From NCBI GenBank assembly GCA_964481585.1, contig CAYZVT010000072.1:1-15313 (forward strand): 15,313 nt of DNA, given 5' to 3'. How positions within the stretch are numbered: position 1 is the first letter of the stretch; each line of letters begins with the position of its first letter. Shown one piece after another: positions 1-12,537 of this stretch. Position numbers and translations under genes: made by a program. The notes under the pieces are model-generated. The model was not told the DNA's origin and searched no databases. It saw nothing but the letters and a program-made list of their open reading frames with translations. This DNA is from an uncultured Pirellulales bacterium (lineage in GTDB: Bacteria > Planctomycetota > Planctomycetia > Pirellulales > CAYZVT01).

Positions 1-94
1 TCACCCTGCCCACGCGCCTCATTGGGGCAAATGCTTTGCCGGTCAAGTGTTACGCCGACCGCCCGCACGCCGCATGGGGCGCTGCGCCCCGCAG

Positions 95-341: not shown

Positions 342-1067
342 TCAATCCTGCGCGGCTTGTTGGCGGAGAATCTGCCACTTCTGCGTTTGCCCGTTGCGGA
401 AGTGGAGCAGCACGGTGCCTTGCGGCTGGGTGAGGCTGCTCAAGGTGGTCTCAAAGATCACGCCGTCGCCGCTGCCGGCGGCCCAGGCGACGCGCTGCGA
501 CTGGGGATCGACTGAGCCGTAGATCGGCTGGCCGGCGTCGCTGAGCACGTCGTAGTAGGTGCCCTGCACCGCGCCGTCTTTGTGGATCGCAAGCTGGACC
601 ATGTGATTCGCCCGCTCCGAGTCGGGCGGCACCAGGGCAAACACTCCCAGCGGCAACCAATCTTCCGCTCGCGTCGAGTTCGGTTCCAAGTCCCCTTCGT
701 GCACCAAGTCGCCGGCCGATTCGACCTGCTCGGCATCGGACGGGGCAACCACGGCCGCCTCATAGACGGTGCTGTAGGAAGCCGTCGCCGGCGCGGCCGC
801 CAGCCCCAGCCATGCCGTCGCGCCGGCGAACGTCGCCACCGTCCACGCATCGGCGTGCGGATGCGTGTACCGCCAGGCTTGCGGATGATCGAGATACCAC
901 TGCGCGGTGAACGGCTGATTCTCCGGCGCGTACTGCTGGAGCCTCTCGTTCGCGCCGGCGCGCGCGTCGCCTCCGCGACGGGGACCGGCCTGACTGACGT
1001 TGGCGAACAGAGCAACAACGAGCGCCGCGCGCAGCGCGCAGCGGCAGAGGTTTCGCGTGGTACGCAT
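342..1067 (-). CDS. secreted hypothetical protein (about 241 aa)
   Basis: Long ORF on the minus strand. The first ATG in frame is at 1067; the ORF-track start at 1112 is a TTG. The N-terminus MRTTRNLCRCALRAALVVALFANVSQA is a classic signal peptide (basic n-region, hydrophobic core, AxA-like cleavage site). The mature part is W/Y-rich with no motif I recognise. Confidence 0.6.
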   Translation of the reverse strand: MRTTRNLCRCALRAALVVALFANVSQAGPRRGGDARAGANERLQQYAPENQPFTAQWYLDHPQAWRYTHPHADAWTVATFAGATAWLGLAAAPATASYSTVYEAAVVAPSDAEQVESAGDLVHEGDLEPNSTRAEDWLPLGVFALVPPDSERANHMVQLAIHKDGAVQGTYYDVLSDAGQPIYGSVDPQSQRVAWAAGSGDGVIFETTLSSLTQPQGTVLLHFRNGQTQKWQILRQQAAQD

Positions 1068-1593: not shown

Positions 1594-3573
1594 ATGGACC
1601 TACGACGGACGCTGCTCGCGCTGGTGCTCGGCTGCGCTTTTGCGTCTTCCGCCGCAGCCGCCGAAGTGACGGACCTGCTCATGGTCGTGCGGAATCCCTC
1701 CTCGCTTACCTCCGGCGAGTCGGCGCGGAAGGCGCTTTTGGAAAGCTGGGGCTACACGGTCACGCTCCTCGACGACCACGCCGCCGCGAGCAGCTTCACC
1801 GCCGCCGCGTCAGATAACGCCGTGGCCTACGTGCCCGCCGAAGTCGATAGCTCGGCGCTGGGGACGAAGCTCAAAGGCGTCTCGATCGGCGTGGTGAGTG
1901 AGTCGGCCGCGCTGAGCGATACCTACGGCTTCGGCCCCGAGCATCTGCAGGATAAATCGGAAATCGAGATCACCAACAGCAGCCACTACATCACGCACAC
2001 TTGGAGCGTGGGGGCGGCCGTCACGGTCGTCAGTTCCAGTCAGCAGCTGTTGGGCATCAACTACGGCTTGCCCTCCGGCGCGGTGAGCTTGGCCGAGCGG
2101 CACCGAGCCGGGCCGCATTACAAGCCGGCGCTCGTCCTGCTCGAAAAAGGGATCGCCATTTACGGCGGCGGCACGGCCGCAGGCCGCCGGGCACTGCTCC
2201 CCTGGGGCACGACCACGTTCAATTTCTCCGCGCTCAACAGTAATGGTCAGACGATTCTCGCCCGCACGCTCCAGTGGGCTGCCCGGCCGATGCCGTCGCT
2301 CGGCAAGCTCCTGCTGGTCGTCCGCGACACCAGTAACCTCACGAGCGAGGAGCAGGAGCGGCGCTGGATGCTCGACCTGTGGGGCTACGACGTAACGACA
2401 ATCGACGAGGGCGCCACGCAGACGAGCTTCGATAGCGCCGTCGCCACGCACGATGTCGTCTACGTCTCCGGCCAAGTCTCCGCCTCGCTCGTCGGGCCGA
2501 AGCTCAAAAGCCAGCCAATCGGCATTGTGAGCGAACACCCGGCCTTAATCCCGGAACTCGGGCTGGCCTCTAGCTACTCGCTCACTAGCGGCAGTTCGCT
2601 CAGTCTCGCGGCGCTCGATCACTTCCTCACCGCGCCGCTGATGCCGGGGCCGGTGTCGCTCTTTTCGAGCAGCGCGTCGGTCACGGTCGTTGGCCCCACG
2701 CGCTCGAAACATCTGCAACTGCTCGGCGGCTGGGGACTGCAAGAAACCCTTCCCGTGCTCGAAGTCGGCGGCGCATGGCATGACGAGCTAGGCACTGCGC
2801 CCGGCCGTCGCGCCGTGCTCCCCTGGAACGGCGGCAGCGTCGCGGCCGACGCGCTCACGCCCGAAGCCAAACTCCTCACCCGCCGCGCGCTGCGCTGGGC
2901 GACCGGCATGGTCGGCTATTGGAAGCTGGACGAAAGCTCCGGCACGCTTGCCACCGACTCCTCAACCTTCGGCCATCACGGCACGCTCGACGGCACCACC
3001 TTCGATGAAAGCACCGTGAGCAAAGCCCGCGTCGATGCCGGCCTGACCTTCGATGGCTTTGACGACCGCATCCTCGTTGCCGATACCGCCGCACTGCGAC
3101 TGACCGAGGCGCTCACGCTCTCGGCGTGGGTGCGGGCCAGTAGCCTCCCCACCGGGTCGAGTGTCGCCAGTGTAATCCGCAAAGGAGACGCCAACTCGTC
3201 GAGCTATCAGCTCGGCATCCGTGGCGGGCGAGCCGTGTTTTTTCTCGACGCGCTCGACACCGCCGGGTTCGCCGGGGCAAGTGAACTCGACACCGGCCGT
3301 TGGTATCACCTGGCCGCCACTTGGGACGGCACGACCGCGCGGCTCTACGTGAACGGCGTGCTCGACACGTCGCCGTCGCTCTTTTCCGCGCCGTTGGCCC
3401 TCGACACCCGGCCGCTGTGGCTCGGCGGCACGTCCACCGGCGACCACTTTGCCGGCAGGCTCGACGAGCTGCGGATCTACGACCACGCGCTGGGCGAAGC
3501 GGAGATCAGCGGCTTGTGGAACCAGAGCCGCCCGCTCGGCGTGCGGGTCTTGCACTGGCAGGAAATCCGCTGA
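1594..3573 (+). CDS. secreted LamG (concanavalin-A-like lectin/glucanase, Laminin_G_3-type) domain protein with internal tandem duplication
   Basis: ATG at 1594 (MDLRRTLLALVLGCAFASSAAAAEV) gives a signal peptide with an RR motif; the ORF-track start at 1546 is a GTG. Purine-rich AGAAAGAGA lies 10-18 nt upstream. Two homologous modules of about 230 aa are present (DLLMVVRNPSSLTSGE...WGYTVTLLDD...KLKGVSIGVVSE versus KLLLVVRDTSNLTSEE...WGYDVTTIDE...KLKSQPIGIVSE, each ending RRALLPWG / RRAVLPWNG). The C-terminal 200 aa (GYWKLDESSG...HGTLDG...LTFDGFDDRI...LTLSAWV...WYHLAATWDGTTARLYVNGVL...GRLDELRIYDHALGEAEI) matches the LamG-like jelly-roll signature. Confidence 0.8.
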   Translation: MDLRRTLLALVLGCAFASSAAAAEVTDLLMVVRNPSSLTSGESARKALLESWGYTVTLLDDHAAASSFTAAASDNAVAYVPAEVDSSALGTKLKGVSIGVVSESAALSDTYGFGPEHLQDKSEIEITNSSHYITHTWSVGAAVTVVSSSQQLLGINYGLPSGAVSLAERHRAGPHYKPALVLLEKGIAIYGGGTAAGRRALLPWGTTTFNFSALNSNGQTILARTLQWAARPMPSLGKLLLVVRDTSNLTSEEQERRWMLDLWGYDVTTIDEGATQTSFDSAVATHDVVYVSGQVSASLVGPKLKSQPIGIVSEHPALIPELGLASSYSLTSGSSLSLAALDHFLTAPLMPGPVSLFSSSASVTVVGPTRSKHLQLLGGWGLQETLPVLEVGGAWHDELGTAPGRRAVLPWNGGSVAADALTPEAKLLTRRALRWATGMVGYWKLDESSGTLATDSSTFGHHGTLDGTTFDESTVSKARVDAGLTFDGFDDRILVADTAALRLTEALTLSAWVRASSLPTGSSVASVIRKGDANSSSYQLGIRGGRAVFFLDALDTAGFAGASELDTGRWYHLAATWDGTTARLYVNGVLDTSPSLFSAPLALDTRPLWLGGTSTGDHFAGRLDELRIYDHALGEAEISGLWNQSRPLGVRVLHWQEIR

Positions 3574-3707: not shown

Positions 3708-4781
3708 ATGGCCTATTCTGTGCTCAGCCCGTACCTTGTGCCGGCCGGATCAAAGAAGCGGGTCAACCTCGGCGATGGGTTCATTCTGCACAACATCCAG
3801 CGGCTGCTTGCTCCGCACGAGTGCCGGTTCGTCTTCACGACCCGCGCGCCGCTGAGCGAGCGACAGATCGAGTGCATCAACGACACCGACGCGCTGATTC
3901 TGGCCGGGGCGAACCAGCTCGACGATCACTTTACGCTCTACCCGACTTGCACGGCTGCCGATCTCGCGCGAATCAAAGTGCCGATCGTTCCCTTCGGCAT
4001 TGGCATCAATGGCGAGCCGGACACGGCGCGAAAAATGAGCGACGCGACGCGGGCCGTGCTCGCAGCCATTTTTGAACGGGTCCGCTATACGTCGTGGCGC
4101 TGCGACGACTCGCGGCAGTATCTCGTCGATCAAATGCCCCGGCACGCCGAGCAATGTCTCATGACCGGCTGCCCGGTCCAATACCGCGACGAAATCCTCG
4201 CCCAAACGCCCTTCCAGACGAGCGAAGCCACGGTGGTCGCCACGATCACCGAGCGGGGCGATTTTTGGGAGCGGGAAAAAACCACGCTCGACTTCCTCGC
4301 CGAGCGCTTCGCCCGCTCGCGCCGTATTCTCGCGCTCCACCAAGATTTCACTTCCAGCGGTCGCCGCCCCGGCGCGATGCGGCGGCTCGCAACTTCGCTC
4401 AAACCCCACGCGCCGCAGCGGCTGCACGATTACGCGCGCGCCCTGGGCTTTGAAGTCTACCGGCCCGCCTCGGCCGAGGAATGTTTGGCCGTCTACGCCA
4501 AGTGCGACTTGCACCTGGGCAGCCGGCTGCATGCCCATCTGCACTTCCTCAGCCGCGCCAAGCGCTCCTTCCTCACTCCGGTCGACGGCCGCAGCGCCGG
4601 CTTTGCCCGCACGTTCGGCTTTCCGCTCTGCGACTACCGCCGCCTCGATGCGCATTTTGATTACGACTTTGAGCGCTACGCCCGCCGCGTCCGCGAAACG
4701 TTCGCCACGATGACCGCCTTCACCGATTACCTGAAGCGCGACGTGCTCCGCACGCCGGCCGCGATGATTAGGGCAGCGTAG
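3708..4781 (+). CDS. polysaccharide pyruvyl transferase family protein (CsaB/WcaK-like)
   Basis: ATG at 3708, stop TAG at 4779-4781. The N-terminal motif KKRVNLGDGFILHNIQRLL resembles the G-x-NxGDeai signature. The C-terminal CDLHLGSRLHAHLHFLSRAKRSFLTPVDGRSAGFARTFGFP resembles the RLHa-I-A...P-i-Y-K motif of PS_pyruv_trans. The match is from memory of the family pattern, not a search. Confidence 0.6.
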   Translation: MAYSVLSPYLVPAGSKKRVNLGDGFILHNIQRLLAPHECRFVFTTRAPLSERQIECINDTDALILAGANQLDDHFTLYPTCTAADLARIKVPIVPFGIGINGEPDTARKMSDATRAVLAAIFERVRYTSWRCDDSRQYLVDQMPRHAEQCLMTGCPVQYRDEILAQTPFQTSEATVVATITERGDFWEREKTTLDFLAERFARSRRILALHQDFTSSGRRPGAMRRLATSLKPHAPQRLHDYARALGFEVYRPASAEECLAVYAKCDLHLGSRLHAHLHFLSRAKRSFLTPVDGRSAGFARTFGFPLCDYRRLDAHFDYDFERYARRVRETFATMTAFTDYLKRDVLRTPAAMIRAA

Positions 4782-4790
4782 CAGCACGAC

Positions 4791-4820
4791 GGGTGCCACT
4801 CTCTGGCCTGTCCAGCAGTG
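4791..4820 (+). repeat. palindromic repeat module H1, forward orientation, degenerate copy (GGGTGCCACTCTCTGGCCTGTCCAGCAGTG)
   Basis: Read directly. Consensus is GGGTGCC ACTGCTGG CTTGT CCAGCAGTG. This copy has an extra base and 2-3 substitutions in the left arm. It starts 10 nt after the stop of the pyruvyl transferase gene. Confidence 0.8.
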
Positions 4821-4909
4821 CTTCCAAACGGGCGTGCGTAATTCTCTCTCGATTCTGTAGCAACGCGTTCCGGGGAAGCGAATCACTTGGAGGCGACGGC
4901 AAACGACGG

Positions 4910-4938
4910 CACTGCTGGACCAGCCAGCAGTGGCACCC
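4910..4938 (-). repeat. palindromic repeat module H1, reverse orientation (CACTGCTGGACCAGCCAGCAGTGGCACCC)
   Basis: Reverse complement of the consensus with one mismatch. A second GGCACCC follows at 4945-4951. It lies 30 nt from the nth stop. Confidence 0.85.
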
Positions 4939-4968
4939 GTATTCGGCACCCACTCTGCCGACCTGGCG

Positions 4969-5640
4969 TTAGCGGTGGCTCGTCACTCCCACTTGCCGGC
5001 ACATGTCGAGCACGGGGCAGGTCGAGCATTTGGGCTGGCGGCCGGTGCAGACGTGCTTGCCGAACGGGACGAGTAGCCGGTTGATCTCGATCCAGTACGC
5101 GCGCGGCAGTTTTTCATCGAGGGCGTGCATCGTCTTCTCGGGAGTCGAGGCCGAGATGTAGCCCCAGCGATTCGTGACGCGGTGGACGTGGATATCGACG
5201 CCGATGCTCGGCTCTCCGCAGGCGATACCGAGCACCAGATGGGCACACTTCGGACCCACGCCCCGGAAGGAGAGCAACACCTGCTCGTCGCACGGCACGG
5301 TGCCGCCGAACTCCCCGACCGCGCGACGGGCAATCTCCCGAATCTGCCCCGCCTTCGCCTCGTGAAACGAGCACGCCCCAATCAGCCGATCAATCCGCCG
5401 CTCCGACAGCTTCGCCACCTCCGCCGGCGTCCGCGCCACCTCAACCAGCGCCCGCGCCGTCGGCACCGTCACCTCGTCCCGCGTGCGAATCGAAATCATG
5501 CACGCCACGAGCTGCTCAAACGCCGAATCAAACCCCTCGGCCGCCAATTCAAACAGCGCCGCCTTCGGAAACGGCCGAACCGCCGCGCGGATTCGCTTCA
5601 GCGCCGCATCAATATCAAACCGCCGCTTCCGAGCGGGCAT
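4969..5640 (-). CDS. nth: endonuclease III (HhH-GPD base-excision DNA glycosylase with 4Fe-4S cluster)
   Basis: ATG at 5640. A helix-hairpin-helix GPD region (LLSFRGVGPKCAHLVL) is present. The C-terminal Cys cluster CTGRQPKCSTCPVLDMC fits C-x6-C-x2-C-x5-C of EndoIII/MutY. The length of 223 aa is typical for Nth. Confidence 0.9.
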   Translation of the reverse strand: MPARKRRFDIDAALKRIRAAVRPFPKAALFELAAEGFDSAFEQLVACMISIRTRDEVTVPTARALVEVARTPAEVAKLSERRIDRLIGACSFHEAKAGQIREIARRAVGEFGGTVPCDEQVLLSFRGVGPKCAHLVLGIACGEPSIGVDIHVHRVTNRWGYISASTPEKTMHALDEKLPRAYWIEINRLLVPFGKHVCTGRQPKCSTCPVLDMCRQVGVTSHR

Positions 5641-5674
5641 GAGGTGTCTCGGAGTTAGTTGCTAAGTCGCGGGA

Positions 5675-5698
5675 CACTGCTGGCTTGGCCCAGCCGTG
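5675..5698 (-). repeat. degenerate solo copy of the H1 hairpin (CACTGCTGGCTTGGCCCAGCCGTG)
   Basis: Shares CACTGCTGGCTTG and a decayed right arm. It lies between the nth start and the end of the 87-aa membrane gene. Confidence 0.5.
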
Positions 5699-5718
5699 CG
5701 GCCGAACGTCGAACCAGC

Positions 5719-5982
5719 TCACGGCAACGCCTCGGGCTTGTCGGTGGGGCCGTTGCGTTCTGCATTGAAGTCCTCTTCATCAGCAACCTGCCACTCCCAC
5801 AGCCCCCCTACGAACAGCGACAGAAGCGCACAGATACCGAGCTTGAGCGGCCAATCGTCCCACCAGTTGTTCCACCAAAGCACCGAAGCATAGAGGCACG
5901 TCCCGACCAGACTGGTCACGAAGGCGTGCGCGACCGTGCTACGCCACGTGGCTTTCGGATTGGTCTTGCCTAATAAGCCCAT
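5719..5982 (-). CDS. small hypothetical membrane protein (87 aa, 2 predicted TM segments, Trp-rich)
   Basis: ATG at 5982. Two hydrophobic stretches (VAHAFVTSLVGTCLYASVLWW and LKLGICALLSLFVGGLW). It is co-directional with nth downstream and another tiny membrane ORF upstream. Confidence 0.5.
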   Translation of the reverse strand: MGLLGKTNPKATWRSTVAHAFVTSLVGTCLYASVLWWNNWWDDWPLKLGICALLSLFVGGLWEWQVADEEDFNAERNGPTDKPEALP

Positions 5983-6064
5983 CGGCTAACGAGTGTTCTC
6001 CACTGTGGACGGCAACTCTCCCCCAGTCCCTCCCTGCAAGCGAGGAGGACTGCAAAATTCGTCC

Positions 6065-6241
6065 TCACCGCAGCCCTTCTTCCGGCGATCGGCGTTCGCC
6101 GAGCGGGAAGTTTTCTTCCGGCTGCCGGCGTTTGCGGGTGAAGATGACCAAGAGAATCACGCCGCCGATGATCGGCAGCAGGACCAAGAGCGCGAACAGC
6201 CCGACGAGGATGATGAGTTCGAGCGGCCCGAATCCGACCAT
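6065..6241 (-). CDS. tiny hypothetical membrane protein (58 aa, single TM)
   Basis: An internal ATG at 6241 (MVGFGPLELIILVGLFALLVLLPIIGGVILLVIFTRKRRQPEE...) is preceded by AAAGGAA 7-12 nt upstream. The longer ORF-track version (to 6451) reads through two copies of the palindromic repeat and is an artefact. Confidence 0.4.
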   Translation of the reverse strand: MVGFGPLELIILVGLFALLVLLPIIGGVILLVIFTRKRRQPEENFPLGERRSPEEGLR

Positions 6242-6264
6242 GCCAATTCCTTTCGTGCTACGAT

Positions 6265-6293
6265 GGGTGCCACTGCTGGCTTGTCCAGCAGTG
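6265..6293 (+). repeat. palindromic repeat module H1, forward orientation (GGGTGCCACTGCTGGCTTGTCCAGCAGTG)
   Basis: Exact consensus copy. The 9-bp arms CACTGCTGG / CCAGCAGTG around a 5-nt centre form a perfect hairpin. Confidence 0.9.
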
Positions 6294-6374
6294 CCGTCAA
6301 CGAGCCTCACGGTGGCGCGTCTTGCCACGTCGTTCTCAGGCCAAGCAAATTGCCCCGGCATTGTCTGTCCGTCA

Positions 6375-6403
6375 CACTGCTGGACAAGCCAGCAGTGGCA
6401 CCC
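6375..6403 (-). repeat. palindromic repeat module H1, reverse orientation (CACTGCTGGACAAGCCAGCAGTGGCACCC)
   Basis: Exact reverse complement of 6265-6293, 81 nt away. Confidence 0.9.
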
Positions 6404-6432
6404 GGGGCACGGGCGAGACGCCCGTGGCACCC
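6404..6432 (-). repeat. palindromic repeat module H2, reverse orientation (GGGGCACGGGCGAGACGCCCGTGGCACCC)
   Basis: Hairpin CACGGGCG-AGA-CGCCCGTG followed by GGCACCC, immediately abutting the H1 copy. Its reverse complement occurs at 9738-9762. A third GGCACCC follows at 6447-6453. Confidence 0.8.
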
Positions 6433-6459
6433 TTCTTCCGTCACTGGGCACCCCGCGCG

Positions 6460-8130
6460 TTAGCTCGTTTCTTCCTTTGCTTCGTGCGGTTGTTCGACCG
6501 GCTTGACGACTTGGCTCGGTTCGACAACGCGGGGTGCGACCGGGGCGGCGCCGTTTTCTTTGGCGGCTGGGGCCTCGCCGTCGCCGCCGATTTTGACGAG
6601 CGACTCGGGCAGTTCCACGCCGCCGATGTCCTTGAGCACTTGCATCATCGGCGGCATCGTGCCGGCCATGTTTTGCAGGAAGTTGGCGGTTGAGGACTTG
6701 CCGTTGGAGTTGCCTTCCCAGACGACGACCTTGTCGAACTTGATGTTCGAAATCGCCTTGGCGCTGGCTTCGGCCAGGTTGTCGAGGTGTTCGAGCATGA
6801 GCAGTTGGAACGCCTCTTTCGCGCCGCCGCAGGCGGTGATGATCTGCTGGAGACCTTCGCCCTTCTTGGCGAGAATTTCGTATTGGCCGCGAGCTTCGGC
6901 TTCGAGCTTGGCGAAAATCGCTTTCGCCTCGCCTTCGGCTTCGATGCGGCGGCTTTCGGCGGCGGCTTCGGCTTCGACCAAGGTGCGTGCCTTTTGGGCT
7001 TTGGCCGGAGCTTCCAGTTCCGCCCGCTGCTCGGCTTCGACCCGTTCGGCCTCGGCCAGCGCGGCTTTGGCCATGGCGCGGTTTTGGGCTTCGAGCACGG
7101 CCGCTTCCGCTTCGCGCTTGCGGCGTTCGCCGATTTCGTAAGCCTCGGCTTTTTTCACGAGCAACTGCGCCTGCGAAGCGGCGATGACCGCCTGGGCCTC
7201 GTTTTCGCCTTCGATGGCGAGGGCGTCGGCATCGGCCAGCCGGATGCGCATCTTCTGTTCGGCGTCTTTCACCTGCGCATCGCGCTCGAAGGCGGCCGTC
7301 TGCTCGCCGACGCTCTGTTCTTTTTCCAGTTCCGCGATCCGCACCGCCTGTTCGCGCTCGGCTTCGCGGGTGCCGATGTCGCGGAGCTTGTTGGCGTTGG
7401 CGACTTGAATCGCGCGGTCGCGGTCGGCCTCGGCCACGCGCGTCTCGCCCATCCGCTCCTGTTCGGCCACGTCGCCCCGCGCCTGCTGCACGGCCTGGCT
7501 GGCGGCTTTCTTGCCGATCGCGTCGATATAGCCCGACTCGTCGGTGATGTCGGTGATGTTGACGTTAATCAGCACCAGACCGATCTTTTTCAGTTCCGGC
7601 TCAAGCGAGTTTTGAATGTGTTCGAGGAACGTGTCACGGTCGCGGTTGATGTCTTCGATCCGCATCGAGGCGATGACCTGCCGCAGTTGGCCGAAGATGA
7701 TTTCCTCGGCTTGCTTGCGGATCTCGTCGGTCGTCAGCCCCAGCAGACGAATCGCCGCGTTCTGCATCACGTCGGGGCTGGTGCCAATTGCCACGGTAAA
7801 GACGCTCGGCACGTTGACGCGGATGTTTTCCGCCGACAGCGCGCCGCGCAGCGGAATCTCGATCTGGATCGGCTCCAGACTGAGGTAGGCGTAGTCCTGA
7901 ACCAGCGGCACGATGAACCGCGCGCCGCCATGCACGCAGCGGGCCGTGTTCTGACCGCCGATCTTGCCGTAGATGATGAGCACGCGGTTGCTCGGGCAGC
8001 GCTTGTAGCGCGACGTGAGCAAACGCAGCACGCTGCCGATCAGGATCGCGGCCACGACGAGAATAATCGCCCAGTAAACCAGACCGCCAGCGAGGTCTGA
8101 GACGAGATCGGCAACGAGTAAATTAAGCAT
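6460..8130 (-). CDS. flotillin / SPFH (band-7) domain protein, YqiK/FloT-like
   Basis: ATG at 8130 (MLNLLVADLVS...). The ORF-track start at 8172 is a GTG and would overlap the upstream gene by 50 nt. An N-terminal TM helix is followed by an SPFH core and a long Glu/Ala-rich coiled coil (AEAERVEAEQRAELEAPAKAQKARTLVEAEAAAESRRIEAEGEAKA), typical of flotillins. The start overlaps the stop of the upstream NfeD-like gene (ATGCTTAA). Confidence 0.9.
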   Translation of the reverse strand: MLNLLVADLVSDLAGGLVYWAIILVVAAILIGSVLRLLTSRYKRCPSNRVLIIYGKIGGQNTARCVHGGARFIVPLVQDYAYLSLEPIQIEIPLRGALSAENIRVNVPSVFTVAIGTSPDVMQNAAIRLLGLTTDEIRKQAEEIIFGQLRQVIASMRIEDINRDRDTFLEHIQNSLEPELKKIGLVLINVNITDITDESGYIDAIGKKAASQAVQQARGDVAEQERMGETRVAEADRDRAIQVANANKLRDIGTREAEREQAVRIAELEKEQSVGEQTAAFERDAQVKDAEQKMRIRLADADALAIEGENEAQAVIAASQAQLLVKKAEAYEIGERRKREAEAAVLEAQNRAMAKAALAEAERVEAEQRAELEAPAKAQKARTLVEAEAAAESRRIEAEGEAKAIFAKLEAEARGQYEILAKKGEGLQQIITACGGAKEAFQLLMLEHLDNLAEASAKAISNIKFDKVVVWEGNSNGKSSTANFLQNMAGTMPPMMQVLKDIGGVELPESLVKIGGDGEAPAAKENGAAPVAPRVVEPSQVVKPVEQPHEAKEETS

Positions 8131-8698
8131 GGGTGGTCCCCGCGGTTTCAGGTGCAGGCTCGACTTCCACACGGTCAGGCCCGAGCACCCCTACGACAAG
8201 AATACGACTTCCCGTTGGCAAACGTCCTCCGGACGTAATCGCTTCGCACTCGACGAGCCGGTTTTGCAAGGTGAGATGAACCTTGCCGGCTCCCTTTTGC
8301 TCGGCGGGAATCGGCACATAGACGACCCCCTCGAGGCCGACCGCGCGGGCGAGCCGCACGGTGCCATCGGCGTTGAGCTGGTGCATCGCCTGCATCAAAA
8401 AGTAGACGCCATACATCGCTCCCAACGCGCCGGCCACGGCCACGAATAGCGGCCACGGATCGTCGAAGTTGGAAGCCAGCGCCGCTTTGCCGAACAGCCC
8501 AAAGAACGTCAGACCGATCACGAGCGTGCGGAACGACAGCACGCCAAAGATCCAGCTGGAGCCGTGATGGTCGACGTCGCCTGTGTCGGCGGCCGCGTCG
8601 AGATCGCCGTCGGCCGTTTCGTCGTCGCCGCCGATGAGCGACTGCACCAGCAACAGCGCGCCGCCGAAGAGGGCACAGAGCAGAAACAGCGTGTTCAT
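8123..8698 (-). CDS. NfeD-like / YqiJ-family membrane protein (flotillin partner)
   Basis: ATG at 8698. Hydrophobic N-terminal half with several TM segments, an acidic stretch (GGDDETADGDLDAAADTGDVDHH) and a C-terminal soluble beta-rich domain (GAGKVHLTLQNRLVECEAITSGGRLPTGSRILVVGV...) consistent with the NfeD OB-fold. It sits immediately upstream of and overlaps the flotillin gene, the conserved yqiJ-yqiK arrangement. Confidence 0.8.
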   Translation of the reverse strand: MNTLFLLCALFGGALLLVQSLIGGDDETADGDLDAAADTGDVDHHGSSWIFGVLSFRTLVIGLTFFGLFGKAALASNFDDPWPLFVAVAGALGAMYGVYFLMQAMHQLNADGTVRLARAVGLEGVVYVPIPAEQKGAGKVHLTLQNRLVECEAITSGGRLPTGSRILVVGVLGPDRVEVEPAPETAGTTHA

Positions 8699-8804
8699 CG
8701 CGAGCGGTCCTGCGAATTTCTAAGGGGGCGTGAACGCTTCAACGGCCTATTCGCTCGCCGGCGGCCGAGCTTGGAAAAAGTGCGGCTCGATTTTCGCTTA
8801 TCTT

Positions 8805-8821
8805 CCCCCGCTCGGCGGGGG
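8805..8821. other. GC hairpin CCCCCGC-tcg-GCGGGGG in the nfeD / DUF72 divergent intergenic region
   Basis: 7-bp perfect stem. GGCACCC follows 17 nt downstream (8839-8845). Confidence 0.3.
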
Positions 8822-8937
8822 ATGTCAAACCGATTCGCGGCACCCCCGATCGGCAGCAGCCGTTGAGGCGGTGGTCCGCCGCTGCTGGCAGCGAAATAAT
8901 AGCACGGGCAGCCGCACGGGATGGGCGACCGACAATT

Positions 8938-9681
8938 ATGTCTTATATCCGGATCGGCACGTGCGGGTTTTGCACCCGTCAGGCCGAGTTCTTCCGCCGC
9001 TTTCGGCTCGTCGAAATCCAGCAGACGTTCTACCAACCGCCCCAGCTCAAGACCGTCGAGCGGTGGCGCGAGGCGGCGCCGGAGTCGTTTCGTTTTGCGC
9101 TGAAGGCGTGGCAAGCAATCACCCATCCCGGCGGCTGCCCGACTTTTCGCAAGTCGAAATTGAGCGAAGCCGAGCGCCGCGAGTGCGGCTCGTTTCGTGA
9201 CACGCCGGTCGTGCGTTCCGCTTGGGAGACAACGCGCGTGCTTGCCCGCGCGCTGCGGGCAGAGTGGGTGATTTTTCAGTGCCCGCCGACCTTTCGGCCG
9301 ACGAAGGAGAATCAAGCCAATCTGGAAGGCTTCTTGGGCTGGGCGGAGCGCGACCAGATGCGCTTCGGCTGGGAGCCGCGCCACCCGGACTGGAACGCGG
9401 AACTCGTGCGCGAGCTATGCGCGCGGCTGGAATTGATTCACGTCGTCGATCCGCTCTACGAAGATTCGGCGTGGGGCACGCCGCGCTACTACCGGCTGCA
9501 CGGCGAACCGCGCGGGACCTATCGCTGGGAGTACCGCTACCGCTACAGCGACGAGGAGCTGACGCGCGTCGCGGAAAAATGCCGCGAAGCGGAGACCTAC
9601 TGTCTGCTGAACAACGACCGCATGTGCGACGACGCCGCACGGCTGGCGGCGCTGCTGGGCCAAGAACTGAGCCAAACCTAA
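8938..9681 (+). CDS. DUF72 (UPF0759, YecE-like) family protein
   Basis: ATG at 8938 (MSYIRIGTCGFCTRQ...FY...LKTVERW...FRFALKAWQAITH). The IGTSGW/F start and the FY...F.FALK pattern match DUF72. The ORF-track start at 8863 is a TTG and adds a non-conserved extension. Stop TAA at 9679-9681. Confidence 0.75.
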   Translation: MSYIRIGTCGFCTRQAEFFRRFRLVEIQQTFYQPPQLKTVERWREAAPESFRFALKAWQAITHPGGCPTFRKSKLSEAERRECGSFRDTPVVRSAWETTRVLARALRAEWVIFQCPPTFRPTKENQANLEGFLGWAERDQMRFGWEPRHPDWNAELVRELCARLELIHVVDPLYEDSAWGTPRYYRLHGEPRGTYRWEYRYRYSDEELTRVAEKCREAETYCLLNNDRMCDDAARLAALLGQELSQT

Positions 9682-9685
9682 GCCT

Positions 9686-9708
9686 GGCCGGTGGGGGGCG
9701 GGGGCGCA
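9686..9708 (+). repeat. G-rich post-stop motif GGCCGGTGGGGGGCGGGGGCGCA (copy 1)
   Basis: It begins 5 nt after the DUF72 stop. A near-identical motif, GGCCGGGTGGCGGGGGCGCA, begins 24 nt after the stop of the last gene (15294-15313). Confidence 0.6.
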
Positions 9709-9737
9709 TCGCACAAGCGGAAGCCCCCGGAAACGCC

Positions 9738-9762
9738 GGGTGCCACGGGCGTCTCGCCCGTG
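9738..9762 (+). repeat. palindromic repeat module H2, forward orientation (GGGTGCCACGGGCGTCTCGCCCGTG)
   Basis: Reverse complement of 6404-6432 apart from the loop triplet (TCT versus AGA). The GGGTGCC flank is identical to the H1 flank. Confidence 0.8.
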
Positions 9763-9890
9763 CTGCGGAGCCAGCCGAGATTGCCACGGCACGACGGCCG
9801 ACACCTCGGCCACGGCTTGCTCCGCTCCGCGACGGCAAAGACTCCCGCTTCCTGGCAGGCTCGTGCTCGTGGTCGGTCGAGCCTACGCGC

Positions 9891-9919
9891 GGGTGCCACT
9901 GCTGGCTTGTCCAGCAGTG
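9891..9919 (+). repeat. palindromic repeat module H1, forward orientation (exact consensus)
   Basis: Identical 29-mer to 6265-6293. Confidence 0.9.
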
Positions 9920-10056
9920 CGCCTGGTGAGCATGCGCTAGCCGATCGGTTTTGCCCTGGAAAGAAGGGACGAGGAAGCTCGGCCCCGCAGGCCGATGTTT
10001 CCTCGGTTTCGCATTGCCGCAACAGAATCAAGCGGCAAATCAGGATCGGTGGAGGG

Positions 10057-10085
10057 CACTGCTGGACAAGCCAGCAGTGGCACCC
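10057..10085 (-). repeat. palindromic repeat module H1, reverse orientation (exact)
   Basis: Identical 29-mer to 6375-6403. It ends 4 nt before the kinase stop codon (10089-10091). Confidence 0.9.
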
Positions 10086-10088
10086 AAT

Positions 10089-11537
10089 TTAAGCCTGGGC
10101 GGTGGCGGTGAGCTTGGCGAGCGCTTCGCGCAGTTGCCGCAGCTTGATCGGCATGGTGGCGACCAAGCGGTGCCCGTTGCTCTGGGCGCTCGACTTCCAG
10201 TTGCGCTGGCGTTCGCTCAGCAGCAGCAGCGCGGGCACGTTTTTGAGATCGTTCCGCTGCCCAAAATCGTTGAAGGCCTCGACCGCGCTTTCGCCGAGCA
10301 TGCCGCTGCTAAAGAGCACCACGTCGGCCACTTGGCTATCGTCGGCAAAGCGCTGGGCGGCGCGCTGCGGATCGCTCGTGACGAGCACGCGATAGCCGCT
10401 CTTTTTGAGGCTGTCGCGAAAGAGGTTTTGCATCTTCACGTCGCCTTCGACGACCATCACCGTGCGCTGCTGGCTGTTGTCGCCCTTCAAGGCGCCTTCG
10501 CCCGCCTCTTCGGCGGCGCTTTCGCGCGCGAGCACGCCGCGCAGATCGGTCGCCAACTCGCCCGGCGTCTGATAGCGGCGGTCGGGATCGAAGCTGAGCG
10601 CCTTTTTGACGACCAGGGCAATCGAGTGCGGCAGATCCGGCTTGACCTGCAAGATCGGCGGGATTTCGCGGAAGCGGCTTTTGCGCAGCCGCTGCGAGCG
10701 CTCCCGCGTCTCGACCAACGGCGCTTGCCCGGTGAGCATGTGGTAGTAGATGCAGCCGGCGAAAAAGATGTCGCTACGGGCATCGCCTTTACGCACGCCG
10801 GTCGAGCGTTCCAGTCCGGCGTAGTCGATCGCGCGGGGGTTGTCGCTCTTTTGGATTACCTCGTCCGTCGCGTTCAGATCGGTGCCGGCCAAGCCGAAAT
10901 CGACCAGCTTCGCCTGCCCGAGGCTGGAAACGAGCACGTTCGACATTTTTAGGTCGCGGTGCGAGATGCCCCGGCCGAAAGCGTAGTCAAGTCCGCCGGC
11001 GATATCGAGCATCAGCCGCGTCGCTTCGAGTGGCTCGCAGCTTTTGCGGATGCGGACGAATTCGAGCAGATTGCGCCCCTCGACGAACTCCATGACCAGG
11101 TAATGGTTGTTCCCCTGCGAATCGACTTCGTAGATCGGGACGATGTTCGGATGCCGCAAGCCCTGGCACATCACCCCTTCGCGGTGGAAGCGGTCGGCTT
11201 CTTCTTTGAGTTCGCTGTAGCGTTTGCGAAGTACCTTGACGGCGACTTGTTTCTTGCCGAGCCGGTCGGTGGCCCGGTAGACGCGCGCAAAGGTGCCGGT
11301 GCCCACGAGATAGAGAACTTTGTAGTCCCCGTAGTAGAACGTGGTGCGGTCGCGGGCAATCAGATGCTCGATCTGGTAGAAGGTGAGCAAGTCGCGGCGG
11401 AGGAGCAACTGGCGGAACTCGTCCAGGCTGACGTTCTGGCTGCCGAACTCGCCCCAGATCTCGCGGAGCTGCGTCTCGTCGAGCAGATTCAGGTTCAGCG
11501 CATGCTGAGCCAGTTCCTCTGCTGACGTAATGGCCAT
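10089..11537 (-). CDS. Ser/Thr protein kinase (Hanks type) fused to a C-terminal receiver-like (pseudo-REC) domain
   Basis: ATG at 11537 (MAITSAEEL...) is preceded by AGGGAG 4 nt upstream; an alternative ATG lies at 11558. Kinase motifs are present: VGTGTFARV (G-loop), VAVK, HRDLKMSNVLV, DFGLA, SDIFFAGCIYYHMLTG, DPDRRYQT. The C-terminal 120 aa (TVMVVEGDVKMQNLF...YRVLVTSD...ADVVLFSSGMLGE...VPALLLLSERQ...MPIKL) has the REC topology, with the conserved T/S and K present. The phospho-acceptor Asp is replaced by Ser (VLFSSGM where VLLDxxMP is expected). Confidence 0.85.
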   Translation of the reverse strand: MAITSAEELAQHALNLNLLDETQLREIWGEFGSQNVSLDEFRQLLLRRDLLTFYQIEHLIARDRTTFYYGDYKVLYLVGTGTFARVYRATDRLGKKQVAVKVLRKRYSELKEEADRFHREGVMCQGLRHPNIVPIYEVDSQGNNHYLVMEFVEGRNLLEFVRIRKSCEPLEATRLMLDIAGGLDYAFGRGISHRDLKMSNVLVSSLGQAKLVDFGLAGTDLNATDEVIQKSDNPRAIDYAGLERSTGVRKGDARSDIFFAGCIYYHMLTGQAPLVETRERSQRLRKSRFREIPPILQVKPDLPHSIALVVKKALSFDPDRRYQTPGELATDLRGVLARESAAEEAGEGALKGDNSQQRTVMVVEGDVKMQNLFRDSLKKSGYRVLVTSDPQRAAQRFADDSQVADVVLFSSGMLGESAVEAFNDFGQRNDLKNVPALLLLSERQRNWKSSAQSNGHRLVATMPIKLRQLREALAKLTATAQA

Positions 11538-11547
11538 GGGACTCCCT
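11538..11547 (-). promoter_or_regulatory. AGGGAGTCCC immediately 5' of the kinase ATG (11537)
   Basis: Reverse complement of the plus strand GGGACTCCCT. Same 10-mer as 12556-12565. Confidence 0.45.
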
Positions 11548-11701
11548 TTACGAATCATTTTTCCGATTTGCCTGCTCCCCTAGATCGTATCCCGGATGCT
11601 CATCGAGAGAAGTTCGCCGCGTACTTGTTAATTTATTCCGGCGGCGCGCCGGCCACAATTGATTCGCCGAGCCGGGGGGCGAGATTGCCCAGCCGGGCGG
11701 C

Positions 11702-11780
11702 TTTTTCCCCGCTCTGGCAGCCGCTGGGGAAAAGCCAGCACCCTGCTACCAGTTCCGGTAGCAGGGTGCGCCGGGGTTTT
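11702..11780. terminator. twin GC-rich hairpins with flanking T runs; candidate bidirectional intrinsic terminator / insulator between the coiled-coil ORF and the kinase gene
   Basis: Hairpin A is TTTTTCCCCGC-loop-GC(T)GGGGAAAA (11702-11733). Hairpin B has a perfect 12-bp stem, CACCCTGCTACC-agttcc-GGTAGCAGGGTG (11739-11768), followed by CGCCGGGGTTTTGGG. On the minus strand hairpin B is followed by CTGGCTTTTCCCC. Both T-tracts are short, so this is not a textbook terminator. Confidence 0.35.
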
Positions 11781-11865
11781 GGGAATGGGGCGTGCGCGAT
11801 AGCTAGCGGTGCGATCAGCAGAGGCGGGAGCCGAAAAAAGGCGCCGACGGCAGCCCCGGCCGAGC

Positions 11866-12470: not shown

Positions 12471-12537
12471 ATAGCCGGCGAGCAACGCTTGCCGGTGCGC
12501 GGCGGTGTTGAACCGGCGAGCGTTGCTCGCCGGCTAT
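12471..12537 (+). promoter_or_regulatory. 19-bp perfect inverted repeat (ATAGCCGGCGAGCAACGCT ... AGCGTTGCTCGCCGGCTAT) with a 29-nt spacer; leader hairpin or operator upstream of the large secreted-protein gene
   Basis: Read directly. The spacer contains a further GCCGGT/ACCGGC pairing. It ends 19 nt before the AGGGAG ribosome-binding site at 12556 and overlaps the alternative GTG/TTG start candidates at 12505-12525. Confidence 0.5.

Follow-up and report, generated by a model that had tools for sequence, protein, structure and literature searches.

Head-outward hairpin doublets in a Pirellulales contig as probable REP elements of a planctomycete RAYT transposase

What are the short palindromic modules that recur as forward/reverse pairs between the genes of an uncultured Pirellulales bacterium (assembly GCA_964481585.1), and what could have spread them? 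The window, by which we mean the whole stretch of DNA analysed (15,313 nt, the entire contig CAYZVT010000072.1), contains a family of such modules of about 29 nt. A preliminary description had compared their architecture to repetitive extragenic palindromic (REP) sequences and bacterial interspersed mosaic elements (BIMEs) of enterobacteria, or to Correia-like miniature inverted-repeat transposable elements (MITEs). The former comparison was right, and the repeats are now tied to genes of REP-associated tyrosine transposases (RAYTs). We conclude that the modules are very probably REP elements, mostly in head-outward inverted doublets of the REPIN (REP doublet forming a hairpin) or BIME type, and that their cognate enzyme is a Planctomycetota clade of RAYTs (HUH/Y1, IS200-like). 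Underlying this conclusion are a repeat family, its strict head-outward orientation, and its linkage to and co-variation with RAYT genes, all of which were directly observed.

The hairpin unit and its link to RAYT genes

Folded as single-stranded DNA, the unit (GGGTGCCACTGCTGGCTTGTCCAGCAGTG in its exact form) has its GGGTGC head unpaired, followed by a stem of 9 bp (CACTGCTGG/CCAGCAGTG) that closes a loop of 5 nt (-10.3 kcal/mol); at 29-30 nt it is a short imperfect palindrome, as REPs are. A scan of genome contigs for the exact 29-mer returned at least 118 stretches from at least 55 assemblies (one assembly per GTDB species). When 284 distinct copies were drawn as a logo together with 15 nt of flank on either side, the edges were sharp. 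Positions 1-29 were near-invariant (with T or C at position 20, in the loop), position -1 was a pyrimidine in 75% of copies and position 30 was C or T; the flanks further out held no information, and nothing was conserved beyond 30 nt.

Six-frame translations of all loci with the 29-mer were screened first for HUH...Y signatures, which yielded two open reading frames (ORFs). In Maioricimonas sp. JC845 (locus L057), the contig opens inside a truncated unit (1-25, plus strand) and carries another at 640-668 (minus strand); between the two 29-mer copies lies a RAYT gene, from ATG at 49 to TAA at 635, encoding 195 amino acids. Its product scored 24.3 bits against Pfam Y1_Tnp (PF01797, cutoff 23) and 87.4 bits against NCBIfam NF047646 (REP_Tyr_transpos, cutoff 80). 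The RAYT proteins together reached 82.3-89.6 bits with NF047646 and failed the IS200 model (20-24 bits, cutoff 55). Homologues were 60-83% identical, and those of Blastopirellula sediminis, B. retiformator and Symmachiella dynata are named REP-associated tyrosine transposases by NCBI. In the alignment, the HUH motif PEHVH has an invariant H65 and H67 in at least 90% of the sequences; W123 is invariant, with Q124 in at least 90%; and in the motif Y-x-H-x-N-P-V, N149 and P150 are invariant and Y145 is kept in at least 90%. Compared with solved structures, the RAYT profile matched solely E. coli TnpA-REP bound to REP (4ER8, E 6e-8).

As an independent test, 84 loci were chosen purely by similarity of the RAYT protein and not by the repeat. 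Eighty were metagenomic (alignment A1) and four were exact look-ups of B. sediminis and S. dynata proteins, among which only L202 is an isolate assembly (of B. sediminis); the rest are Logan- or metagenome-assembled contigs. A plus-strand GGGTGCC-tagged hairpin lay within 200 nt upstream of the RAYT gene in 64 of the 84 loci, a minus-strand one lay downstream in 58, and both were present in 54; on shuffled sequence, the same detector found 0.009 per flank. The heads of these hairpins point outward, and the stem is identical on either side of the gene in 48 of 52 loci. The RAYT-selected loci thus show the arrangement known as a REPtron, a RAYT gene flanked by inverted REPs. In L202-L205, an exact unit begins 52 nt before the RAYT start codon, and the next unit follows 12-18 nt past the stop.

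The stem changes with the enzyme. The CACTGCTGG stem accompanies the closest RAYTs; more distant RAYTs occur with CACTGGCGG, CACTGGC-TCT-GCCAGTG, CACTGGTGG (with the head GGGTGG), CACTGCTAA and others. Mean RAYT identity was 60.8% within a stem class versus 55.7% between classes. For two proteins (P0132 and P0123), the RAYT ORF had been called upstream through the REP, giving N-termini like '..PPGATAGLSSSV..', a translated unit. That many RAYT contigs reach only 0.7-2 kb suggests that assemblies break at the repeats.

ORFs between distant head-outward units (L056, L066, L019 and L026) were also considered; they are not transposases. Another RAYT-like gene, more distantly related, lies on the minus strand of locus L028 (2813-3424), flanked at 2749-2795 and 3437-3452 by GGGTGCCATGCCCAG heads that both point in the same direction. 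One of these heads closes a longer nested hairpin.

To follow the stem itself, we chose units by head and loop alone, leaving the stem free (45 distinct sequences). These contained ten distinct, perfectly complementary stems, such as CACTGGCGG/CCGCCAGTG, CACTGGTGG/CCACCAGTG, CACGGTTGG/CCAACCGTG and CACGGGTGG/CCACCCGTG, with compensatory changes on both sides in six of the nine stem pairs. Cells altered on both sides numbered 58 versus 20.5 +/- 3.1 in shuffles (0 of 500 shuffles reached 58), and 91% of cells were paired versus at most 63% with slid partners. The hairpin is under selection. Variation in the stem was concentrated at positions 10, 12 and 13; the GGGTGC head, the first (outer) three stem pairs (C-A-C/G-T-G) and the CTTGY loop were fixed. 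This pattern fits a hairpin recognised by a protein.

A mechanism can be proposed by analogy with the biochemistry of E. coli TnpA-REP and IS608, from which binding, cleavage and mobilisation are carried over (PMC3479197, PMC6006769). Each unit would fold on single-stranded DNA into its 9-bp hairpin; the RAYT would recognise the invariant head, the C-A-C/G-T-G stem base and the loop. By cutting and rejoining the strand, it would spread single units or doublets to new locations, mostly between genes. The window's own copies would be dispersed products of two REP types, now intact, decayed or reduced to remnants, on which a RAYT encoded elsewhere in the genome would act in trans.

Units in the window and their arrangement

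The module had originally been written as GGGTGCC followed by CACTGCTGG. This formula finds no literal match because it holds one C too many: only GGGTGC is unpaired, and the C after it already belongs to the stem as its first base. With the corrected pattern GGGTGCCACTGCTGGNNNNNCCAGCAGTG, and with the chance level taken from 200 dinucleotide-preserving shuffles, five true copies were found without mismatches (4910-, 6265+, 6375-, 9891+ and 10057-; 0.00 expected). A sixth match, 10051+, is the palindromic shadow of 10057-. Four of the copies are exact GGGTGCCACTGCTGGCTTGTCCAGCAGTG, identical across all 29 nt; the further type-1 copies are one loop variant and two decayed units. The original count of seven near-exact copies and one decayed copy was therefore too high, and one decayed unit (5671-5698) had not been listed. 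A hairpin of a second type, GGGTGCCACGGGCG-TCT-CGCCCGTG, which shares the head, had been overlooked; it occurs twice (9738-9762, plus strand, and 6408-6432, minus strand) and folds equally stably (8-bp stem, 3-nt loop). Eight occurrences of the 9-mer GGGTGCCAC were counted versus 0.14 expected, and two of them open second-type hairpins. In total, the window carries nine units in 15.3 kb, spread over four intergenic gaps and not three as first described. Other parts of that description held: folding bore out the 9-bp stem and 5-nt loop of the module, and the forward/reverse pairs 4791/4910, 6265/6375 and 9891/10057 were confirmed. The units and remnants are as follows.

4791..4821, plus strand: decayed type-1 unit (GGGTGCCACTCTCTGGCCTGTCCAGCAGTGC), left arm of doublet A, recognised by reading the sequence and by its head; contains an indel and folds only weakly (-4.5 kcal/mol, z 0.20), no better than shuffles; begins 9 nt past the pyruvyl-transferase stop codon
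4910..4938, minus strand: type-1 unit whose variant loop reads CTGGT, forming the right arm of doublet A across a gap of 88 nt, from the pattern search; 30 nt past the nth stop codon
4945..4951, minus strand: solo GGCACCC head without hairpin, adjoining an intact unit, from reading the sequence; possibly a REP remnant, perhaps by deletion
5671..5698, plus strand: decayed single unit (GGGACACTGCTGGCTTGGCCCAGCCGTG), from repeat families D4 and D18; folds poorly; located in the gap that separates the nth start from the small upstream ORF
6265..6293, plus strand: exact type-1 unit, left arm of doublet C, from the pattern search; begins 23 nt upstream of the ATG (6241) of a small minus-strand ORF
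6375..6403, minus strand: exact type-1 unit, right arm of doublet C (gap 81 nt), from the pattern search and folding
6408..6432, minus strand: type-2 unit GGGTGCCACGGGCG-TCT-CGCCCGTG, from repeat family I7; fold -10.3 kcal/mol; 27 nt past the flotillin stop codon
6442..6453, minus strand: CACTGGGCACCC, a type-1 unit minus the hairpin interior, adjoining intact units, from reading the sequence; possibly a deletion remnant
9738..9762, plus strand: type-2 unit, from repeat family I7; 56 nt past the DUF72 stop codon
9891..9919, plus strand: exact type-1 unit, left arm of doublet D, from the pattern search
10057..10085, minus strand: exact type-1 unit, right arm of doublet D (gap 137 nt), from the pattern search and folding; finishes 3 nt from the kinase stop codon

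Units related to type 2 were found in loci L022, L042, L078, L146 and L167, and the type-2 hairpin of the window resembles the TCT-loop units beside the more distant RAYTs of L146 and L167.

Two of the gaps lie between convergent genes, as had been stated and as Pfam confirmed: pyruvyl transferase (3708-4781, plus strand) with nth (4969-5640, minus strand), and DUF72 (8863-9681, plus strand) with a Ser/Thr kinase (10089-11558, minus strand). The third had been taken for the end of the flotillin operon; this does not hold, since the gap (6242-6459) runs from the flotillin stop (6460) to a small ORF that starts at 6241 on the same strand. The fourth gap (5641-5718) separates two further minus-strand genes. 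Every unit in the window lies between Pfam-supported or long ORFs, and seven of the nine are downstream of stop codons, 3-56 nt away.

To see how the units are arranged in general, we took the public stretches with the exact 29-mer together with the window (841 kb). Among the matches listed, neighbours at most 400 nt apart were head-outward in 84 cases, head-to-tail in 11 and head-inward in none. Doublet gaps of 7, 13 and 20-25 nt were preferred, with a mode of 22 nt; doublets with the 7-nt gap combine two stem types, CACTGCTGG with CACGGKTGG. Spacers were unrelated between genomes; two metagenome-assembled genomes (MAGs), CSMAG_2418 and CSMAG_2480, each contain doublets that repeat the spacer along with about 15 nt of outer flank. 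Doublets of the window can close into long hairpins whose stems span 29 bp, doublet C at -49.9 kcal/mol (z -8.2) and doublet D at -72.6 kcal/mol (z -10.2). With z scores of -8 to -11, such doublet folds correspond to the long hairpins of REPINs. An arrangement rare in the family was seen in L037 (1570-1712), where four identical units stand head-to-tail with a 38-nt period and 9-nt linkers (GCCGCAAAG).

Some further features of the window deserve mention. Mid-spacer in doublet D, between the convergent genes, there is a terminator-like hairpin (9979-9995) with T-rich tails on both strands; the true terminator of the DUF72/kinase junction may be located between the REPs instead of within them. 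The same intergenic region is bracketed as a whole by a 16-nt direct repeat, TAAGCCTGGSCGGTGG (9679-9694 and 10090-10105; 15/16 identical, 0.01 expected by chance), which overlaps both stop codons; none of the 210 fetched loci contains it. The repeat resembles a duplication scar, its two copies enclosing about 395 nt of inserted DNA; such a duplication would not arise by HUH transposition. At 11738-11780, a 13-bp perfect palindrome (GCACCCTGCTACC-agttcc-GGTAGCAGGGTGC) followed by GGGGTTTTGGG is terminator-like, has GGGTGC within its stem and matches Rfam ctRNA_pGA1 weakly (30.3 bits vs 45). Finally, a 26-nt inverted repeat (12471-12537, family I10; 96% complementary, 15-nt loop) overlaps the start of a 921-amino-acid ORF and gave weak miRNA-like Rfam matches.

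Known REP systems and alternative explanations

The family shares its design with several described systems, with differences in each case. Like REP/BIME elements of E. coli and their RayT (TnpA-REP, YafM; 4ER8), it has short GC-rich imperfect palindromes with a conserved unpaired 5' tag, inverted pairs of different REP types with short linkers (here the mosaic doublets with 7-nt gaps) and a HUH/Y1 transposase gene between inverted REPs, and its RAYT profile matches both 4ER8 and NF047646. It differs in its tag, its conserved CTTGY loop and its unrelated stems; the identical unit spans many genera, and there was no evidence here of IHF or gyrase motifs. With the REPIN-RAYT systems of Pseudomonas fluorescens and others (Bertels & Rainey 2011, PMC3116915) it has in common head-outward doublets foldable into one long hairpin, a RAYT gene flanked by its own REPs and several REP types per genome. 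Unlike those systems, its spacers are unconserved between genomes and unique in the window, and one sequence is common to more than one order and apparently to more than one phylum.

GTAG-tagged stem-loops with compensatory stem sub-families, typically in tag-outward dimers 20-100 bp apart, have been described by Di Nocera et al. (2013, PMC3733652). This superfamily, which includes GTAG-20/21 of Opitutus terrae and Rhodopirellula baltica, resembles ours in all three respects (tagged stem-loops, compensatory sub-families and tag-outward dimers); the tag beside the stem is GTGC here. Most GTAG-20 elements of O. terrae carry a GTGG variant (PMC3733652), and sister clades of our family have GGGTGG, that is, a GTGG tag. 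The listed peptides and supplementary files for R. baltica GTAG-20/21 (PMC3733652) held no trace of the window sequence; these are different families. In IS200/IS605 elements (IS608, ISDra2), a Y1 HUH transposase likewise works on subterminal DNA hairpins; unlike them, the hairpins here are identical on both sides, inverted and dispersed as gene-less copies, and the protein passes the RAYT and not the IS200 model. The class 3 TnpA-Y1 genes of Planctomycetes and Acidobacteria (Quentin et al. 2018, PMC6006769) are also planctomycete Y1 genes amid abundant secondary structures. Their motifs are NHVH / W[TA] / YV..EQ, with a CnGA foot (PMC6006769); the RAYTs here show PEHVH / WQ / Y(I/V)HxNP together with a GGGTGC head and resemble class 2 RAYTs. 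The kind of element is already known, and the sequence family is apparently new to description: a full-text literature search did not return the 29-mer, and it gave no REPIN/RAYT paper that mentions Pirellul*.

Three observations weigh against assigning the modules to a REP family with a RAYT partner. First, the window contains no RAYT, in agreement with the preliminary description, which saw no transposase (best tblastn E 0.045). Weak tblastn RAYT matches at 11728-11836 were dismissed, having no Pfam match. Second, the conserved unpaired tag is GGGTGC (GTGC beside the stem) and not the GT[AG]G tag of described REPs; its position and invariance agree with the canonical REP tag, and its sequence differs. 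Third, the window spacers are long (81-137 nt, against the family mode of 22 nt) and unique, without homology to one another or to any fetched locus. The doublets of the window may therefore each represent two independent single insertions, not copied as one piece.

Host-evolved regulatory hairpins at gene ends, acting as bidirectional terminators or mRNA 3'-end stabilisers and having no mobile origin, would explain why most window units stand just past stop codons and why they fold so stably. E. coli REPs, moreover, can protect upstream mRNA. We nevertheless regard this explanation as improbable. A terminator scan flagged no unit as a terminator, and no T/U tract follows the hairpins; after the stem comes C or T and then uninformative sequence, unlike an intrinsic terminator. 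The identical 29-mer occupies non-orthologous sites across the assemblies, relatives close in flotillin lack units, and units flank RAYT genes. The restriction to 3' gene ends that had been suggested is not general either: family-wide, unit clusters fell in 27 convergent, 65 tandem and 19 divergent junctions, in about the proportions of the background (130, 354 and 120), gene calls being crude. These family-wide extragenic tests (own ORF caller, stop-free reading frames) are not decisive. One doublet, at 4867-4931 of L060, is even read in frame (..LGATAGLSSSASNTAGQANRGT..) within an RsmA/KsgA-like methyltransferase ORF (4196-5473), where it forms an 84-nt insertion relative to the syntenic locus L029. 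A secondary effect of the units at the RNA level, or on the host otherwise, for example through mRNA 3'-end protection or protein binding, is possible.

The modules might instead be the terminal inverted repeats of a Correia-like MITE derived from a DDE-type insertion sequence, the doublet being the element. Doublets do have inverted ends, and the conserved spacer and outer flank in CSMAG_2418 and CSMAG_2480 are as in a larger element. Yet the logo shows no conserved flank positions that would mark a fixed insertion target, and flanking duplications were not seen when the doublet flanks were read by eye, no systematic scan being made. The spacers of different genomes are dissimilar, as are those inside the window; compensatory selection acts on the hairpin that each arm forms by itself, and single units and head-to-tail arrays also exist. 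The gene between inverted copies encodes a Y1 HUH transposase and not a DDE enzyme. The Correia/MITE analogy thus fails, and we hold this origin to be very improbable.

Equally hard to credit is that the units are part of a structured non-coding RNA gene, or sites for a conserved host DNA- or RNA-binding protein, whose function keeps them identical across species. Exact conservation across orders and stem covariation with an invariant head and loop would suit such a function; the units, however, stand in both orientations relative to neighbouring genes, lack conservation beyond 30 nt, are missing from relatives close in flotillin, and co-vary with a flanked protein gene that is a RAYT. The Rfam comparison proposed in the preliminary description was run as a permissive scan of Rfam 15: no family reached its gathering score, and only chance miRNA-like matches on long hairpins appeared below threshold (for example, 34.1 bits vs a gathering score of 98). 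Ideas of a CRISPR-like array, a sigma-54 promoter (TGGCAC) or an uptake sequence were dropped because downstream elements are unconserved and because of the RAYT result.

Distribution and significance of the family

The carriers of the 29-mer are mostly Planctomycetota, with labels among the matches listed that include Pirellulales, Thermoguttaceae, Lacipirellulaceae, Planctomycetaceae and Maioricimonas. The closest homologues of the window flotillin are named Pirellulales or Planctomycetia. The 59 kb from three relatives with a flotillin 80-84% identical (L119-L121) contain no unit. Their synteny with the window extends no further than the flotillin gene and the adjacent upstream ORF, which precludes an orthologous comparison of the window's junctions. 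The loci L029 and L060 are syntenic, and at two sites a doublet is present in one and missing from the other. At about 2700-2850, L060 has a GGGTAGTGGATAGTGGGTAGTGG-like repeat run (different, GTAG-rich) where L029 has a REP doublet. In the RAYT-selected loci, the density of units away from the RAYT gene was 1.7 per 10 kb (range 0 to about 11). The family is widespread but patchy, as expected for a mobile element. It is not lineage-specific, as had been supposed: the identical 29-mer occurs across several Planctomycetota families and in a Desulfomonile-like genome, and is missing from the relatives close in flotillin.

Seven of the 55 assemblies among the matches listed carry non-planctomycete labels. 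Exact 29-mer doublets are found on two contigs (237 and 567 kb; L009 and L014) of the Desulfomonile-like MAG101; in L014, a RibBA gene 81% identical to Desulfomonile proteins lies 4 kb from the doublet. These contigs also bear further GGTGCC-tagged hairpins, with sigma-54 activators among the neighbouring genes, and another of the non-planctomycete-labelled MAGs has nitrogenase-like genes nearby. The identical REP thus appears to be present in a second phylum. Exact doublets were also noted on large contigs of MAGs that are Desulfomonile-like or labelled 'delta proteobacterium' (L025, L050, L092 and L098). Contigs of MAGs labelled Enterobacteriaceae or Klebsiella pneumoniae (L003, L053 and L063; GC 54-58%) carry the planctomycete REP as well and are probably mis-binned. 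Five IMG/VR contigs classed as viral (L206-L210) contain the exact 29-mer; among PLSDB plasmids, it had no match.

Papers on REPIN-RAYT systems describe their inheritance as mostly vertical. Against this background, we advance tentatively, as a possibility short of a probable one, that at least 55 species-level genomes maintain a single REP, identical across its 29 nt; they span several families of two Planctomycetia orders and include a Desulfomonile-like (Thermodesulfobacteriota) genome. If this is true, either the RAYT-REP system passes from phylum to phylum by horizontal transfer, against the prevailing view, or the RAYT-REP recognition pair has been frozen since before these lineages split. 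Either way, the RAYT recognition code would become directly readable from more than 80 natural RAYT/REP pairs whose stems co-vary.

With these results, a striking repeat of a little-studied phylum gains a mechanistic identity, as a very probable REP/REPIN family with a named partner enzyme. For planctomycete genomics, the units matter in practice: they appear to break assemblies (one RAYT contig begins inside a unit), can sit in frame inside genes, and mislead gene callers into ORFs reading '..GATAGLSSS..'. For the REPIN-RAYT field, the family provides a non-GTAG tag, a large natural set of co-varying enzymes and hairpins, and a test case for vertical versus horizontal inheritance.

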